64,000 nt of DNA. Origin: an uncultured archaeon (GTDB taxonomy: Archaea > Thermoplasmatota > Penumbrarchaeia > JASLWR01). Location of the stretch: the NCBI GenBank assembly GCA_964342815.1, contig CAYFHS010000012.1:1-64000 (forward strand). The letters run 5' to 3'. A program made the translations under genes and the position numbers. Below the pieces are notes generated by a model. That model did no database searches, had not been told where the DNA came from, and saw nothing but the letters and a program-made list of their open reading frames with translations. Below, piece by piece: positions 30,106 to 39,591 of this stretch (position 1 is its first letter; every line of letters starts with the position of its first letter).

Positions 30106-32750
30106 AGCCCAAAAGGATAAAACAGATCGAGTTCGGTTTGCTTTCACCGGAAGAGATAAGGAAGATGTCGGCTTTGAAAGTAATTACCGCTGATACATAC
30201 GACGAAGACGGTTTCCCTATTGATATGGGTCTTATGGATACGCATTTGGGGGTTATTGAACCAGGACTCAGGTGTAAAACCTGCGGTCGAAAGGTGGACG
30301 AATGTCCCGGTCATTTTGGTCATATCAACCTTGCCATGCCAGTGATCCATGTAGGTTACGTCAAACTCATCAAGAACCTGCTGCGAGCTAGTTGTAGATC
30401 CTGCGGTAGGTGTCTACTCAATCCTCGAGAGATAGAAGACGGGAAATTACACATTCAAAAATGCATAGACACCGGTATGGTAAATGAGACCGATACGATA
30501 TACAAGGAAGTGGTCAGAGAAGCATCCAAAGCAAAATTCTGTCCACATTGCGGTGCGGAACAGAAGAAGATAGTTCTGGACAAACCAACTACTCTACGAG
30601 AAGAAAGGCACAAACTCACCCCTCGTGAAGTAAGGGAAAGACTGGAAAAGATACCTGAAAGCGATCTTCCGGTGCTCAGCGTCAATCCTGCAATAGCAAG
30701 ACCCGAATACATGATCCTGACCGTTTTACCGGTCCCGCCGGTCACTGCGAGACCCTCAATCACACTGGAATCCGGTGATCGCTCAGAGGATGATCTCACT
30801 CACAAGATGGTCGACATTCTGAGAATCAATCAACGTCTTCTCGAGAACAGGGACGCAGGCGCACCCCAGCTCATTGTTGAAGATCTTTGGGAACTTCTCC
30901 AGTACCACGTAACGACCTATTTTAACAATCAGACTTCAGGAATACCTCCCGCCAGGCACAGGAGCGGCAGACCCCTGAAGACCCTGACACAGCGTTTGAA
31001 AGGAAAAGAAGGACGTTTCAGATCCAATCTTTCCGGTAAGAGAGTGAACTTTTCCGCACGAACGGTGATTTCTCCAGATCCCAACATATCCATCAATGAA
31101 GTTGGGATTCCCTATCAGATCGCCCAGGAACTGACCATCCCCGCTCGGGTGAACCGGTACAACATAGAAGTGATGCGGGAGCTCGTGCGGAACGGACCTG
31201 ACACCTACCCTGGAGTAAATTATATCATGCGGAATGACGGACGACGCATTAAGCTGACAGAGAAGAATGCCGAACACCTTGCAGACGAGGTTCTGGAAGA
31301 AGGATGCGTTGTTGAAAGACAGATGATCGATGGGGATGTGGTACTCTTCAACCGGCAGCCCTCTCTTCACAGGATGTCAATGATGGCACACACTGTAAAA
31401 GTGATGAAATACAAGACCTTCCGTTTGAACCTATGTGTCTGTCCACCATACAATGCGGATTTCGACGGAGATGAGATGAACCTTCACTTGATACAGAGTG
31501 ACGAGGCCAGGGCCGAGGCTATGATATTAATGTCCCCCCAGGAACATATACTTTCACCGAGGTTCGGAGGCCCCGTTATCGGAGCTATCCACGACCACAT
31601 TTCCGGCGCGTTCCTAGCCACATATCACAGGGAATTCGATTACGAGCAGGTTCTCAATATTCTAGAGAAGATCAATTGGTTAAAGGGCATACCCGAACCT
31701 GATAGGGTGGATGAGAACGGAAAAAGATACTGGAAAGGAATATCCATATTTTCCCTGATCCTGCCGGATGATCTAAATCTTGATTACAAAGCATCCATCT
31801 ATGATCCTGATTTGCCGGAAACCGACACTATTGTAAGAATACGCAACGGGAAGATTTTACAAGGTACGGTGGACGGCCGCTCCATAAGCGCATTCAAAGG
31901 AAGGATCCTGGACACCGTAGTAAGGGAATACGGTCCGGATGAAGGTCGGAAGTTCCTCGATAACGTTACCAAGGTTTCACTGGGCGCCATTTCACAATTG
32001 GGATTCTCAACGGGTATCGACGATCAGGACATACCGGAGGACGCTTCCAACCAGATCAAGGAGGGACTGCAGTCGGCCAGTGATGCCGTGGCCAAACTTG
32101 TACGGTCCTATCACGAGGGAATACTGACCCAGCTTCCGGGCCGGTCTCTTGAAGAAACATTGGAAGTAGAGGCAATGAAGGTACTTGCAAAGGCCAGGGA
32201 TATTGCCGGAGAGATCGCTGGAAAACATCTCGGTCTTGGAAACTCCGCAGTGATAATGGCGAAATCGGGAGCCAGAGGTTCGATGCTGAACCTGTCGCAG
32301 ATGTCCGGATCCATCGGACAGCAGGCCGTAAGAGGTGAAAGAATCTCCCGTGGTTATGAAAACCGTACTCTGCCCCATTTTAAAAGAGGCGACAAGGGTA
32401 GCGAAGCAAAGGGATTCGTTAAATCGTGTTTCAAGGACGGCCTCACACCAACGGAATATTTTTTCCATGCAATGGGTGGAAGAGAGGGATTAGTGGATAC
32501 CGCGGTAAGGACATCACGTTCGGGTTACATGCAAAGAAGGTTGATCAATGCCTTGGAGAATCTCCGACTCGTTGAGGACGGAACCGTGAGGGACACCGAT
32601 AGCGTGGTGGTACAGTTCAAGTTTGGAGATGACGGTATCGATCCGGCCAAGAGCATTGCCGGAAATCCCATTGATATTGAGGAGCTGTTCAGGAGAAGGA
32701 TGATATACAACAAAAAGCGCGATCCCATGAGAAAGGAGGTGAAAGCATAA
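30102..32750 (+). CDS. rpoA1: DNA-directed RNA polymerase subunit A' (Rpo1N)
   Basis: [17 protein letters not shown], catalytic [11 protein letters not shown] and [23 protein letters not shown] overlap with rpoB. Confidence 0.98.
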
Positions 32751-35365
32751 CCACCAGCATCACAAGGAAGACCATAAATGCCTTCATTACACGGGGTATC
32801 GACGAGGACACAGCCAATGAAATCGTTGAAAAGGGTTACAACCTGGCTCGTATCGAGAAGGCGGAATTCCCCCAACTGGTGGAAGATCTTGGTCCGGACA
32901 TGGCTTTCGAGGTCGGAAAGAAAGTATTCACCAGGACGCGTTTCGACGAATTCAGCAAAGTATTCAATGAGCTGAAGGATAAGTTCAAGGCAGAGCGTGG
33001 AGAACCGGAACCTGAGAAAGGGGTTGTGAACATTGAAGAAATTCCCAAGAAACACCGCAGCATCCCAAAAAAGGAATGTGACCGGGGTATCGTATTCACA
33101 ATCGGAAAGGAATCCCAGGTTGAGCAGCTGAGGAAAATATCGCAGGAGACCGGAAAAGCCATCTGGGGAAATAATTTCAAGATAAACACATCGAAATTTT
33201 CATTCCCCCTTACCGCGTATATTTATATTATAGGAAAAGGTGTGGAATTCAGGTCTGTAATCAGCGAAATATATTCGAAACCGGTTGATCGAAAAGACAT
33301 TTTGATAGAATCCCAACGTGATGAGGTATTTCCATCATATTTCCTGCTTAAGGACATCTCACCTCTGGGTGAGGTGATCGATCTTATGGAAATGGTATCT
33401 CCCAGCGGAACTTCTATCAAGAGCGCACGGAATTACACAAACATACTGGTTCACAAGGGCGAATATCTTCCTTACGAGATGTATGACTTCGGGAAAAAAG
33501 AAGGGGAGAAAATAGAATCATTGGAGCCCTCGAGACCGAAAACCATCAAGGAGCAGTTGAATATAATCTGGAAGATCGAAGATTTGGAAATGGTGAAAGA
33601 CTATAGTTCATTCCTGGAAAAGGGGAAGAAAATAGCTTATTGGGGAGTGGATTTCCCCATTAGCAAGAAGAAATTCTCGTTCCCGATAACCGGATACCTC
33701 ATGACGGAAAACGACATCTCACACAAGGCGACAATTACAGATCTCATCAAATATTCTGCAAAACAGCCACCTGAGGAGGGTAGTTGTCCAAGCAAATACG
33801 AAGGGGATTACGATACCTTTATCGTAATATCCGAAATAACCGAGATCGAGGAACCAAAACAGCTGGTCCATTTCAGAAATCCGCGTGGGAAGCGGCCAAC
33901 CAGCCTCCGGACCTACATCCGGGTCCTGGGAGGTCCCGAGGAGGGAACCATCATTGACCAGAAGGACATTACTATACGCGCTCCCGAGGTGGAGATCAAG
34001 AAAAAGATGAAAGAAACGATAAAGACGGTCACCCTTCCCACCATCAAGGACCGAATCTCCGAGATTGTCGAGAGGAAGAAACTTAATCTTGACGAGGATG
34101 ACATTACCCGACTGGGACTCAAATACGGCAGGATAAAAAAAGAGGACACAGAGCTGGAGGAAATATTCGATAGTTACAATAAAATTCTCCTTGCCCGCAA
34201 AGATATCAAAACTCATATTCCCGTGAGTACAATTGATGAACTTGCTGAAAATATAAGAAAATTCGAACCTGATCAGGAAGAACTTGGGGATATCATCGAT
34301 GTCATTATCGGGGACCGTAGCCGCCGACTCATGGACCCACACGAGTCCTGCGGGATCGTATCAGCTCAATCCATTGGAGAACCAGGGACACAGATGACCA
34401 TGAGGACGTTTCACTATGCCGGTGTGGCCGAGATCAACGTAACATTGGGGCTGCCCCGTCTCATCGAGATAGTGGACGCCAGACGGCAGCCATCCACACC
34501 AATTATGGAGGTCCACCTGACTGATGACGTAAAGGATGACAGGGCAAAAGTCCAGAAGATCATTACCGAAATAGAAGCGACTAAACTTATGGACGTTGCT
34601 TCTCTGAAAACCGACCTTACTAACATGAATGTTCGGATCGAACCGGACAAGGAAAAGATGGTCACCAGGGGAGTTCGCCTCGATGATATAAAAGACAGGT
34701 TAATGACTGCCAGGCTCAGGGGTATTTCAAGAACGAAGACGAAACTCACAATCGAAGAGGAACGGGGAACCGGAAATCTGATAATGTCTTCCGACCAGGT
34801 CTCTTACAAACACCTTCAGGCCCTTGTGGAAGGAGTGAAAGGAGTACGGGTCAAAGGTATAAAGGACATCGAGAGATGTATTGCCAGAATGGAGAAGGGC
34901 GAGGGGTACGTTATCCACTCGGAGGGATCCAACCTTCAGGAAGTACTGGCAGTGAACGGGGTCGACATAACCAGGACGACAACGAACAATATCAGGGAGA
35001 TTTATCAGGTTCTCGGTGTGGAAGCCGCCAGGAACTCCATTATCAAGGAAGCCTACGACACGCTTAGAGAACAGGGGTTACAGGTGGATATAAGGCACAT
35101 TATGCTGGTTGCAGATATCATGTGCGTTTACGGGGATATACGGCCTATTGGAAGGCACGGTATAACTGGGAAGAAGTCCAGTGTTCTGGCGAGGGCAGCA
35201 TTCGAGATCGCAGCCGCAACCCTGCTGACAGCGGGGATAAAGGGAGAGGTGGATTCCCTGGAAGGCATAGCCGAGAATATCATTGTGGGCCAACCGGTGA
35301 TCACAGGGACCGGCGAGGTGGCATTGGCGTACGACCCAACGAGAAAATGTAAAGAGGTGATCTGA
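32747..35365 (+). CDS. rpoA2: DNA-directed RNA polymerase subunit A'' (Rpo1C), ~872 aa, with a large N-terminal extension containing a tandem domain duplication; probable ATA start
   Basis: C-terminal ~390 aa carry [34 protein letters not shown] and SVLARAAFE. Frame is open from ATA 32747, which follows a GGAGGTGA SD. Confidence 0.92.
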
Positions 35366-35366
35366 A

Positions 35367-35654
35367 ATGGATATCCGTCGCGCATTAAGGCAGGCTGTTT
35401 CAACAGGAACAGTTTACCTGGGAACGAAACTGACCCTTAAGGCTCTGAAGAAAAAGAAGGTCAAACTGATAATATACTGCAAGAACACATCAACCCCCCA
35501 AGAAGGAATATTCCTGAAATACGGGAACATTCCGAATTACCAGTTTCCGGGAACGAACTTCGAGCTGGGTGCTGCCTGCGGGAAACCATTTGCAGTATCG
35601 GTGCTGTCCATCATTAAAGCGGGCGAGTCTGATATATTAGCCTTGATTAAATAG
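35367..35654 (+). CDS. rpl30e: 50S ribosomal protein L30e (eL30)
   Basis: TGTVYLG, GTNFELGAACGKPF.VSVLSI..AGESDI. Confidence 0.96.
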   Translation: MDIRRALRQAVSTGTVYLGTKLTLKALKKKKVKLIIYCKNTSTPQEGIFLKYGNIPNYQFPGTNFELGAACGKPFAVSVLSIIKAGESDILALIK

Positions 35655-36411
35655 AATCATATGATCCAAAACATAAATAATTGCTTTTATCGATCGATGT
35701 CAGCCCGCCTTCTACCTTTTTTTACTTTTCCCACGGGTACCAGTCCTGCCAGTATCATGCAGTGTAATTATACAAGGTCTCTGGTTCAGCTAAAAGCTAT
35801 CCTTGGTGTGTTTCTCTTTGAGTATAATTCATTTTTTTTTAAAGCGTCCAGGCTGATTTATAATCCAGTTCTTTCTTCCGATATAGCTAATTCCAATTTA
35901 TAGAGCCCCACGAACGGATTTTTGAGGTGTTTTTGTTAGTGAACATTCCAGTGTGAAAAAGTTCACTTTCCGAACAAATTGGAGTCGCACAATTCGCCGA
36001 GTGAACTCCCAACAGCTCTGAAAAAACTCATACAAGATTAATTATTCTATTTTTTAAAATTAAAATCTAAAAGCACCGGGACTTATTATATATGTATTAT
36101 TATAGTAACTCACAGCAATAAAATCGTCGAATCTTACAGCTGTTTTTCGCAGATCTACCGAAAAAATGGCTGTTTGTTCTCAAATTTGGCGAAAATAGAA
36201 AGTTAAAAACATAATTCATAATTTTTAGTCTTCCACATGAAGCCAGTAATCCGGATATAGCAGTATCCGTTGATCAGGAATTGGTCGAAAATATAGGAAA
36301 AACCTTGAAAAAGTCGTTAAAATCTACTCAAAATAGGACTGGGTAATAAACTATATATATAAATTATTATAATCCATAAAGAGTTTAAGCAAACTAATAG
36401 AGGTGAAAAAC

Positions 36412-39400
36412 ATGTATGGAAAAATGAAAAGAATAATTGTAGCCACCCTGGTAGCGATTATGATATTGAGTGCTTTTCCTATGATGGCAAATGCCGCGGA
36501 AGAAAATGCACCCGCACCGGGTCGCGCAAATGAGATAACGGTAAACGATATAGAAGTAACAACGGAAATACCGTTCGAAGAGGACGGTGTGAACGGAAAC
36601 GGAGAATATGTAGTGGCAGTGAACTTTACATTGCCCGAGCAAATGGTTAGCGTGAATGTCACAGTTAATGTCACTCACAACGGCAGCTTTGAAACCAACG
36701 CCACCGAAAAGCTAAACCTGTCTGCTGGAGATCATGACGTCCTTCTTCAGAAAGCGTTCGATTTCACCGATCCGGGGCTTTATACCATAAACGCCTCCAT
36801 AGATGGATGGAATGGAACCGGAATGATCGACGGGGCATTGAACATTTCTGACGTGAATTTCACGACGATAATCGATTTCTATGTAAACATCAGTATCGAA
36901 GCCCCGGACGTGGGTGGAGTATACGGAAAGGGACCCATAGAGATACACGCTGTCGTTAAAAACACAGGAAATTCCATCATAGAGAATACGAACGTAACCA
37001 TCGAGGCCGTAAACGTCTCCAGCCAGATCGCAGAGGTGTTCACGGAGGCCTTCGAGGGTATCGAAATCCTGGCCCCCAATATGGAGTCAGAGCCCGTTCA
37101 GTTCTTCTGGATTCCATCCAAGGAAGGCGACAACAGTGATTATGATATCACAATCACGGCAACGAACGTTACAGGTGGAGTAAGCAACAATACCACCTTG
37201 CGTGTTTCGATAAAGAACATTACCGTACTGCATATCGTTGACATGACTGGATTCGGCGACACCCAAGGTGGGGCGAGTACATTCTTCGATGTGAACGTGC
37301 TGCTGAACAATACCGGTAACGCTGCCGGGAAAGGAACAGTTCACCTGGTGATATATCCGGAAGGAGATCCGGGAAATCCCGTGATCGACCTTACAAATAC
37401 CTCCGATGATGTTGCCCCCGAAGAGGGAACCGCTACAAGAGAAGAAGGCACTGTTGTATTCCCGAACCTTTCCATCGATACTCCGGGAGAATACATGGTG
37501 AAGGCAAGCATCGCGGGTACGGAGGAAGAAATGATCAAAAACCTGACCATCGAACCGGATCCGAATCTGGCACCGGACCTCATGAACGTTTCTCTATCAC
37601 CGGATCCAACAGCCGTTAACGTGCTGGTGGGTGAGGAAATAACCTTTTCAGTCGTTTACAAGGATGTTGATGGTGACGCGGGAACCGTGAAGCTCTACAT
37701 TGACAACATCATGCACGACATGGTCAACGGAAGCGCCACATGGCTTGATGGGGTCACCTTCACGTATACGTGGGCGGCAACAAACGCATCAAACCATTCG
37801 TACAACTTTGTGGCTAATGATGGAACGGAAAACAAATTTATGGAGCACGTTGATTACAACTTCACCGTCTACGAGCACACTGACGGATGGCTGTACGGAA
37901 AGGTCACCGACGGGAACGGAAACGTATCAAATGCCTCGGTGGTCATCTACATTACGGCCATGAACGCGACTAACGTAACATACATCGACAAATACTACAA
38001 CACAACAACGGACGCTAACGGTGATTTTTCGAAATTCCTGCCTTTCACCGATACAAAATACGTGATCATGCTGGACGAGACCTGGCTGGCGGACAATAAA
38101 CTCGAAGTTACCGGAGTGAACAAGCAGAACTTCGAGATCAAGGCGGCGACGCCCAAAGCATGGGTAAATTACACCCTTACAGATGCGGCACCGCCTCCGG
38201 TACCTACATATCTCGTCGGCAAGGTTGTGGATGAAAAAACTGGCGAAAATCTTTCCGGTGTGACAATCACCGTGGAGATATTCAAAGATGTTGAAGGCAA
38301 CATGACCGCTCTGGTTGACGGTGTGAACGTAACCATCAATACAACAACCCGAACCTGGATGAACCTCACGGCTACGACTGACATGAACGGTTCGTACGCT
38401 GTCATGGGAGTACCCCACGGTCAAGTCGATATCGACGATGCAAAGGTCACCGGTACAATGGTCTACCGCCATGATGTGGCGGAACCGGAAGGAGCGATCC
38501 TGGGCTGGTGGTTAGCAACGGCCGAATTGACTGATTATGTTACCCAAAAGAAATCCCTGGAGTTCAAGGAAGCTATGAACACAACCTGGAACGTCACTCT
38601 GCCAAAGGATATAACGGTTCTTTACTCCATATCCGGTGCAGTAAATCCAGCAAGTGCAACGGTGAAGTACGGAACTACAGCGGTTGTGGTGGATAGCACA
38701 ACGGGAAATTTCACCGTTACAAACCTTACGGTAGGAACCTACGTGTTCACCTTCACTGCAGATGGCTATATCACAAGAACTGAGAATGCAACCATCATCG
38801 ATGCGGACGTACTTCTGGGGACTATAAAACTTGTGCCGGACCCCGATTCCAATATAACTTACACAATGAAACTTGGACCTTGGATGGAGAACGATGAAGA
38901 TGGAAAACCCGGTGTAGAGGTTTCCTTTTCATTCCTTGGTAAAGATTACGAAGGTGTGACAGGATCGGATGGATATGCAGTGTTCAAGGAATTCCCGGTA
39001 CTGAACTTACCCGACGATATCAAGGTAACCCATAAATTCGGGGATGAAGCTGCAGTAACCGAGGATGTGGATGATCTTGATCTTGATAAATGGAGAGGAG
39101 TTGAAAAACCAGTTGAAACCGACGGGAACGACATACTCCTCATAGTGGCCATCGTCGTGATCGTTTTCATCATCATCATTCTCGTTGTGCTTGCCATGAA
39201 ATCCAAGGGCGGCGAGGAAGAGCTATACGATGAAGAGGTCAGGGAATACGAGTGCCCGAGCTGCGGAGCAATTGTGACTTCCGACATGGACACCTGTCCG
39301 GAATGCGGCGAGAGCTTCGAGGAAGAAGAGTTCAGATGCCCGGAGTGCAGCGAGATGGTTGAGAAGGATGCCACCATCTGCGACTCATGCGGCTCCGAGT

Positions 39401-39591
39401 TCGAGATGCCCGAGAAGGTCGAAGAGGAGATCGAGGAAGGGGAAGAAGGAGATGAGCTGGAACCCCCCGAGGACGATGTCCCCGAAGCCATCGATGAGTT
39501 CGATGTGGAGGACGAGGATGCGGAACTCGAGGGCGTCGAAGATCTTGAAGAAGAACTCGAAGAGGAAAGCCTTGATATGGACGACGAATAA
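36412..39591 (+). CDS. Large surface glycoprotein (S-layer-like; Ig/carboxypeptidase-regulatory-like beta domains) with TM anchor, cytoplasmic double zinc ribbon and acidic tail
   Basis: Signal peptide; very many N-x-S/T sequons; beta-rich repeats; TM ILLIVAIVVIVFIIIILVVLAM; four CxxC pairs; D/E tail. GAGGTGA SD precedes ATG 36412. Confidence 0.8.
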   Translation: MYGKMKRIIVATLVAIMILSAFPMMANAAEENAPAPGRANEITVNDIEVTTEIPFEEDGVNGNGEYVVAVNFTLPEQMVSVNVTVNVTHNGSFETNATEKLNLSAGDHDVLLQKAFDFTDPGLYTINASIDGWNGTGMIDGALNISDVNFTTIIDFYVNISIEAPDVGGVYGKGPIEIHAVVKNTGNSIIENTNVTIEAVNVSSQIAEVFTEAFEGIEILAPNMESEPVQFFWIPSKEGDNSDYDITITATNVTGGVSNNTTLRVSIKNITVLHIVDMTGFGDTQGGASTFFDVNVLLNNTGNAAGKGTVHLVIYPEGDPGNPVIDLTNTSDDVAPEEGTATREEGTVVFPNLSIDTPGEYMVKASIAGTEEEMIKNLTIEPDPNLAPDLMNVSLSPDPTAVNVLVGEEITFSVVYKDVDGDAGTVKLYIDNIMHDMVNGSATWLDGVTFTYTWAATNASNHSYNFVANDGTENKFMEHVDYNFTVYEHTDGWLYGKVTDGNGNVSNASVVIYITAMNATNVTYIDKYYNTTTDANGDFSKFLPFTDTKYVIMLDETWLADNKLEVTGVNKQNFEIKAATPKAWVNYTLTDAAPPPVPTYLVGKVVDEKTGENLSGVTITVEIFKDVEGNMTALVDGVNVTINTTTRTWMNLTATTDMNGSYAVMGVPHGQVDIDDAKVTGTMVYRHDVAEPEGAILGWWLATAELTDYVTQKKSLEFKEAMNTTWNVTLPKDITVLYSISGAVNPASATVKYGTTAVVVDSTTGNFTVTNLTVGTYVFTFTADGYITRTENATIIDADVLLGTIKLVPDPDSNITYTMKLGPWMENDEDGKPGVEVSFSFLGKDYEGVTGSDGYAVFKEFPVLNLPDDIKVTHKFGDEAAVTEDVDDLDLDKWRGVEKPVETDGNDILLIVAIVVIVFIIIILVVLAMKSKGGEEELYDEEVREYECPSCGAIVTSDMDTCPECGESFEEEEFRCPECSEMVEKDATICDSCGSEFEMPEKVEEEIEEGEEGDELEPPEDDVPEAIDEFDVEDEDAELEGVEDLEEELEEESLDMDDE

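Follow-up and report, generated by a model that had tools for sequence, protein, structure and literature searches.

Duplicated PUA-like domains in an extended N-terminal arm of RNA polymerase subunit A'' from Thermoplasmatota

Results

An extended rpoA'' gene in a conserved operon

The window analysed here is a 64,000-nucleotide stretch of DNA from an uncultured marine archaeon of the Thermoplasmatota (contig CAYFHS010000012.1, positions 1 to 64,000). It carries an rpoH-B-A'-A''-L30e operon whose A'' gene encodes a long N-terminal arm ahead of the polymerase core. The features of the locus are as follows.

32734..32742, + strand: Shine-Dalgarno-like sequence AGGAGGTGA for rpoA''; a comparable purine-rich run lies upstream of the relatives' ATG
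32747..35365, + strand: rpoA'' (rpo1C), 872 aa, member of the rpoH-B-A'-A''-L30e operon
32747..32749, + strand: non-canonical ATA start codon, overlapping the TAA stop of rpoA'
32747..32944, + strand: N-terminal (HhH)2 domain, aa 1-66, by profile matches and a fold match to NusA (1U9L)
32996..33052, + strand: disordered linker, aa 84-102 (pLDDT <50)
33077..33454, + strand: PUA-like domain copy 1, aa 111-236 (pLDDT 94.7), with W140 and K-S-A-R228-N-Y230 kept and the loop aromatic absent (Q190)
33494..33535, + strand: disordered linker, aa 250-263 (pLDDT <50)
33551..33934, + strand: PUA-like domain copy 2, aa 269-396, by homology and by sharing copy 1's secondary structure, with W299, loop Y351, R388 and Y390 kept
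33947..34027, + strand: disordered tether to the polymerase body, aa 401-427 (pLDDT <50)
34031..34330, + strand: two tandem helical modules, aa 429-528 (hhalign probability 86%, E 5e-6)
34331..35365, + strand: conserved Rpo1C core (PF04998 and TIGR02389)
35367..35654, + strand: L30e-like gene, with no nusA after it, unlike other families

The rpoA'' reading frame runs unbroken for 872 codons from ATA at 32747 to TGA at 35365. The protein was identified as Rpo1C from its slot in the operon and from TIGR02389, which scores 451 bits (cut-off 420.65) in a match that begins at residue 491; RNA_pol_Rpb1_5 was the sole Pfam family matched. The estimate in the initial annotation of a subunit more than twice the length of its core is therefore upheld. 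So is its exclusion of an intein, given the PUA-like fold described below and the lack of any intein or LAGLIDADG match in Pfam.

Several lines of sequence evidence support ATA as the start codon: the ribosome-binding sequence, the ATG of relatives, contigs from two independent runs that cover the codon with zero differences, and selection on the 66 HhH codons downstream (dN/dS 0.034). Because the ATA recurs in independent contigs, AUA initiation of this essential gene is probably genuine. Within 32734-32750 the stop/start overlap reads ATAA in rpoA'' and ATGA in relatives.

Two other features of the locus were observed. The jaw region of RpoA'' contains a basic R/K-rich stretch (aa 654-676, window about 34705-34775) which is conserved across the family of the window organism and seems extended relative to other families. 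After the operon, positions 36403-39591 encode a protein of 1062 aa, secreted or located at the surface, which has a membrane helix at its C-terminus, a double zinc ribbon and an acidic tail.

Architecture and authenticity of the N-terminal arm

The arm consists of an (HhH)2 domain, a domain of ~126 aa that occurs twice in succession, and a helical module that is likewise duplicated, with disordered linkers between them. Residues 1 to 66 belong to the HhH group by both profile and fold: matches were obtained to topoisomerase V repeats (E 8e-13), NusA (E 0.004) and the RadA N-domain (E 0.03), HHH_5 was matched in 4 of 22, and the domain superposes on the NusA acidic repeats (1U9L; Z 6.1, rmsd 2.8, 59 aligned). 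The two copies that follow are 27% identical (E 7e-11; profile-profile probability 100%) and approximately neutral in net charge (+1 for copy 1, 0 for copy 2), and their ends fall within 6 nt of those first drawn (33083-33448 and 33557-33928). The proposed order of N-terminal module, two copies and core was also correct, except that the duplicated helical module, the second unit of which is the usual Rpo1C N-terminal domain, had been missed between copy 2 and the core. The segment spanning aa 397-428 is 94% identical to that of a same-genus genome. A model of aa 1-538 presents separately folded units joined, like beads on a string, by linkers of pLDDT <50, with a pTM of 0.33; because of this low value and the disordered linkers, no fixed packing is predicted inside the arm.

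An assembly chimera, a concern raised at the outset, is excluded by the occurrence of the same layout in independent genomes and by contigs that bridge the junctions; the insertion is genuine. Seven further database proteins of 872-881 aa share the two-copy layout, which is also found in genomes of the window organism's family and of three to four other families, while most other members of the class have one copy. Overlapping contigs from independent samples span copy 1, linker, copy 2, helical module and core. Comparison with the same-genus genome gave dN/dS values of 0.019 (copy 1), 0.038 (copy 2) and 0.027 (core). Both copies are thus under strong purifying selection and functional, and these estimates exclude a neutral relic. 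Two metatranscriptomes contained a few short matching contigs, one of them within copy 1, which do not prove expression.

The domain is PUA-like but falls outside the named families

We assigned a domain to the PUA-like superfamily where it combined a beta pseudo-barrel, a helix after strand 1 and a structural match to members. The confidently predicted fold of copy 1 has all three and is not a non-PUA fold, the outcome that would have counted against the initial annotation. Its best structural match was Archaeoglobus fulgidus AF2351 (2KKU; Z 10.0, rmsd 2.7, 108 aligned), followed by ZmASCH (Z 9.7, rmsd 2.9, 113 aligned), YTH domains (Z 8.3), THYN1 (Z 7.6) and the EVE protein PH1033 (Z 7.4); the N-domain of Thermococcus gammatolerans McrB gave Z 6.8 and VcaM4I Z 6.1. 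The top 15 VIA matches were PUA-like folds or unannotated entries (Z 7.4-10.0), every Foldseek match was YTH/ASCH/EVE-like, at E >0.001, and the SRA fold is not named among the 50 structural matches listed. Copy 2 has the same secondary structure as copy 1 in the arm model.

Atlas neighbours of copy 1 include PF24405 'Pua-like' clusters (TM 0.78-0.80) and a 71-member Rpo1C cluster. The Atlas entry closest in shape (TM 0.89), a 264-aa cluster, bears the automatic name 'EF-hand domain fragment' and, from two records, a Nucleocytoviricota label; it may consist of mislabelled polymerase fragments or represent a viral homologue.

Profile searches with PF01878 (EVE) and PF04146 (YTH) matched neither copy and none of 28 homologues, and PF04266 (ASCH) matched none of 28 copies. 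Additionally, hhalign against 29 EVE proteins, a template set of low diversity, returned probabilities <2% and no usable alignment. The GxKxxE/TxR-type motif that is the signature of ASCH domains is absent from the domain alignments, in which a Pro is the sole invariant residue and no polar residue is invariant. PF24405 (27-bit cut-off) produced below-cut-off matches in 3 of 28 copies (best E 0.0022) and 25.3 bits with a stand-alone relative. A PDB sequence search with the domain profiles yielded zero matches, and neither Pfam, NCBIfam nor PADLOC names the domain. Taken together, the structural matches and profile results indicate a PUA-like domain that is not EVE, YTH or ASCH by sequence; of the EVE/PUA-like identity first suggested, the superfamily is retained and the EVE family is not. 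The domain found in the polymerase is probably a sister family of PF24405 that has no name as yet.

Distribution in Thermoplasmatota

A refined domain profile matched 83 of 401 sampled Thermoplasmatota genomes, mostly on RpoA'', and at the loci checked at least one copy resides on RpoA'' in 13 families. Among the carriers are Picrophilus, Cuniculiplasma and the cultured Thermoplasma (Thermoplasma acidophilum and T. volcanium), Ferroplasma and Aciduliprofundum, where the domain forms the extreme N-terminus of the subunit. In T. acidophilum (Q03586, 508 aa) it was recognised by profile similarity (E 5e-9, probability 96.7%), with no Atlas match; on this evidence it would account for the long N-terminus of that subunit. 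CDD PRK14897 we take to be the entry called 'unknown domain/RpoA'' fusion', and the N-terminus of Q03586 is presumably marked unknown in UniProt. No publication containing that phrase was found.

Three copies occur in a Cuniculiplasma-related genome (L085:677-5793). RpoA', in a frame of 1032 aa, carries one of them at its C-terminus and RpoA'' begins with the other two, so that either side of the A'/A'' split accepts the domain. Families without the PUA-like domain often have one to four HhH domains at its site. In f16, f23, f32, f34, f38, f40 and f43 (L128-L134, L136, L147), tandem HhH replace it in RpoA'' frames of 600-970 aa. A further family, f27 (L071:2560-3021, L072, L095, L096), has HhH only on RpoA'' and encodes a stand-alone homologue of ~155 aa, possibly a split-off form.

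Kin outside the polymerase

Of 1.8 billion proteins searched with the domain profile, 160 matched. Non-polymerase kin are stand-alone proteins of ~140 aa and fusions to McrB-type AAA_5, NucS-like, HNH, PLD and NOV_C domains, the nearest in sequence being fused to McrB-type ATPases and to HNH, PD-(D/E)XK or PLD nucleases. In line with the initial annotation, these are architectures of modification-dependent restriction (PMC6765204); a polymerase fusion is not mentioned in a description of such architectures (PMC7641849). In RpoA'' no restriction partner was found: the domain is fused to the RNA polymerase core without a nuclease or McrB motor, and there was no PADLOC match.

Resolution of the domain tree is poor. 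On it, a common origin for the polymerase copies was not rejected (AU p 0.60, leaving out five rows, namely three long branches and two likely polymerase fragments) and, as far as the sequences go, is compatible with the data. On the unrooted core tree 8 changes are needed, with gain and loss not separable.

Residues of the putative base pocket

VcaM4I stacks a flipped base between W82 and Y130 while Q128 acts as a wedge that fills the gap; Y130A is the only single pocket change that was impaired across all assays, the others being tolerated (PMC7897488). In YTHDC1, R475 makes a general RNA contact outside the cage and is worth 100-fold in affinity (PMC8016981). The domain was mapped onto VcaM4I and YTH through aligned ranges and motif spacing rather than coordinates. 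By this mapping W82 would correspond to the loop position Q190/Y351, Y130 to Y230/Y390 and the wedge Q128 to R228/R388. Of the VcaM4I pocket (P24/W82/Y130 with wedge Q128), the Y130 equivalent is thus likely present in both copies and the loop aromatic in copy 2 only, with Arg as the wedge; of the YTH cage (W377/W428/L439), the first Trp would be present in both (W140, W299) and the second position aromatic in copy 2 only.

The loop aromatic is found in 104 of 111 non-polymerase kin versus 15 of 82 polymerase copies, counts that are uncorrected for kinship among the sequences. The corresponding figures for a helix His are 61/111 and 7/82, and the wedge motif is mostly Q-x-Y in the non-polymerase kin and R-x-Y in the polymerase copies. 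In the 24 Aciduliprofundum/Thermoplasmatales-like copies the loop aromatic (0 of 24), the first Trp and the wedge are gone, and lysines have been gained, including a Lys-rich loop. Outside this group the loop aromatic occurs in 15/58 polymerase copies, Y/F230 in 56/57, R228 in 44/57, S226 in 45/57 and K/R225 in 50/57. Conservation of Y230 could reflect folding.

Among 16 aligned two-copy proteins, seven of which are close relatives, the second copy has an aromatic residue at 299, Y390 and R/K388 in all 16 and an aromatic residue at 351 in 11. Judged by its residues, copy 2 (W299, Y351, R388, Y390) is the best candidate for an intact base pocket. The overall pattern fits a nucleic-acid face that has been retained while methyl selection was relaxed, with copy 2 as a possible exception.

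Co-occurrence with nusA

The usual slot of archaeal nusA is after L30e. The gene is absent from this slot in the window (35654-36403) and was not found in the window genome or its family (0/4), nor in f5 (0/1), f2 (0/2), f7 (0/24) or f28 (0/5); it was found in nearly all other families sampled. An intact K-S-A-R-x-Y motif is present in 5/5 families with the domain and without nusA, compared with 2/8 families that have both (family-level Fisher p 0.02, or 0.001 over all 35 families; the comparison is post hoc and the families are related). In f14 and f31 neither nusA nor the domain was found. An independent-pairs test of the link had no power.

Discussion

We favour, with about even prospects of its being right, a reading of the arm as a domesticated and largely modification-blind nucleic-acid tether, an accessory factor built into the polymerase. 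Flexible tethers would present one or two base-gripping PUA-like domains, together with the HhH domain, to nascent RNA or nearby DNA, so that surfaces able to bind nucleic acid would be locally concentrated next to the enzyme. In each PUA-like domain a base that is unpaired or flipped out would rest on the C-terminal Tyr (Y230/Y390), and the Arg two positions before that Tyr (R228/R388) would contact the neighbouring base or the backbone, with little or no methyl selectivity in either domain; the HhH domain would bind backbone, and the arm as a whole would stabilise elongation or initiation complexes. In support, the fold lies nearest to the nucleic-acid-binding ASCH, YTH and EVE domains, dN/dS equals that of the core, and Y/F230 and R228 are retained. 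Furthermore, the tandem HhH domains often found at this site in lineages that lack the PUA-like domain point to generic nucleic-acid binding. Against it stand the near-neutral net charge of the window copies, the indirect residue mapping and the post hoc character of the nusA link.

The ligand of such a tether may be nascent RNA, which is slightly favoured and would imply a NusA-like role, or bubble or downstream DNA, by analogy with Rpo13, a lineage-specific, non-specific dsDNA binder on archaeal RNA polymerase (PMC3479171). Because nusA was not found in families with the intact motif, nascent RNA is the ligand to consider first, as a post hoc lead. If the domain does bind it, this might explain how several lineages manage without NusA.

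The initial annotation had proposed that the polymerase senses modified bases. Copy 2 would then still flip and select m6A or 5(h)mC in DNA or RNA, and transcription would respond to methylation or to modified foreign DNA. Because copy 2 keeps the full inferred set of W299, Y351, R388 and Y390, largely shared by the second copies of the other two-copy proteins, this idea stays live, although we think it unlikely. The restriction-type fusions of the kin speak in its favour and, by analogy with VcaM4I, in which every single pocket change but Y130A is tolerated, a domain without the loop aromatic may still be able to read. Conversely, the pocket appears eroded in most polymerase copies: the loop aromatic is present in 0/40 sequences of the single-copy lineages f7, f2, f28, f36, f41 and f42, in which one domain has to work unaided and some of which also lack the first Trp, and the helix His is mostly lost. 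Seven of the 16 two-copy sequences are, moreover, closely related. In the 89% complete genome neither a C5 methyltransferase nor a full Dam-type enzyme was detected, only type I/IIG-like N6 enzymes. It is doubtful that the polymerase-proximal copy keeps a working methylated-base pocket through which the polymerase would sense modified DNA or RNA directly, by way of a domesticated restriction reader and with no separate factor. Were copy 2 to read methylated bases, no earlier case of a cellular RNA polymerase with its own modification sensor would be known to us.

The domains might instead serve as a docking site for a factor of transcription, RNA processing or translation, or lend the polymerase stability, nucleic-acid binding having been lost. 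The neutral charge of both copies and the loss of the wedge motif in Thermoplasmatales copies would suit such an adaptor, as would the resemblance of the HhH domain to the NusA acidic repeats, which bind proteins. However, the best-conserved surface motif lies on the putative nucleic-acid face, the arm model (pTM 0.33, disordered linkers) predicts no fixed packing within the arm, and no partner was identified; we consider this explanation rather improbable. A catalytic ASCH-like domain, acting as a nuclease or ac4C amidohydrolase on nascent RNA, is very improbable: ZmASCH is the second-best structural match, but the 28 copies have no PF04266 match, the GxKxxE/TxR-type motif is lacking and only a Pro is invariant. 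Finally, an assembly chimera or neutral relic is scarcely credible, since, even though the A'/A'' site accepts many gains and losses, the layout recurs in many independent genomes, contigs bridge the junctions and both copies are under purifying selection.

Because the domain is spread much more widely outside the polymerase, we infer that it moved from defence to polymerase. An ancestral Thermoplasmatota RpoA'' would have acquired, at the A'/A'' split, a PUA-like domain belonging to a family of restriction-type readers, with duplication following later; the split would be a permissive site that also accepts HhH repeats. Archaeal RNA polymerase is regarded as varying very little, and yet a sizeable part of one phylum has an apparently defence-derived domain fused to a core subunit, conserved in the family of the window organism as strictly as the polymerase core. 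The one-copy version in laboratory-grown Thermoplasma makes the idea testable in a cultured organism.

A literature search, with subscription journals and the AlphaFold DB and InterPro annotations outside its reach, found no description of a PUA-like-RpoA'' fusion, in agreement with the initial impression that no such subunit had been described; a 2024 survey of RNA polymerase insertions mentions neither PUA domains nor Thermoplasma (PMC11515920). Relative to canonical archaeal Rpo1C (TIGR02389, PF04998), the window subunit has the same core, above the curated cut-off, and the same operon place after rpoA', and adds about 490 N-terminal residues: the (HhH)2 domain, two PUA-like domains and an extra helical module. 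AF2351 (2KKU) is the best structural match to copy 1, and clusters of PF24405 are close in shape; sequence matches to PF24405 are weak and all below the curated cut-off.

The restriction readers VcaM4I, an EVE-HNH protein (6YEX), and the McrB N-domain of T. gammatolerans (6P0G) have a common fold with the RpoA'' domain (Z 6.1 and 6.8), and its nearest kin carry Q-x-Y with spacing like that of VcaM4I Q128/Y130. In contrast to these readers, the RpoA'' domain has no nuclease or ATPase partner, is fused to an essential housekeeping enzyme and is kept across whole families; its polymerase copies have Arg for the wedge Gln and have mostly lost the loop aromatic. YTH (YTHDC1/2, Mmi1) and ASCH (ZmASCH, TRIP4) domains likewise share the fold (Z 7.0-9.7), and the RpoA'' domain has a conserved Arg near its C-terminal strand like R475 of YTHDC1. 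They differ in that identity to the RpoA'' domain is 8-17%, that their Pfam families do not match it and that the three-residue cage is incomplete in copy 1. The YTH domain of Mmi1 binds unmodified RNA, so a YTH fold that is blind to methylation would have a precedent.

Lineage-specific nucleic-acid-binding additions to the archaeal polymerase or elongation complex are represented by Rpo13 of Sulfolobales, the Rpb5 jaw and archaeal NusA (PMC2675907, PMC3479171). Their folds are unrelated to that of the RpoA'' domain and the likeness would be one of functional analogy only; in RpoA'' the module is covalently fused to the polymerase and appears to derive from a defence reader.
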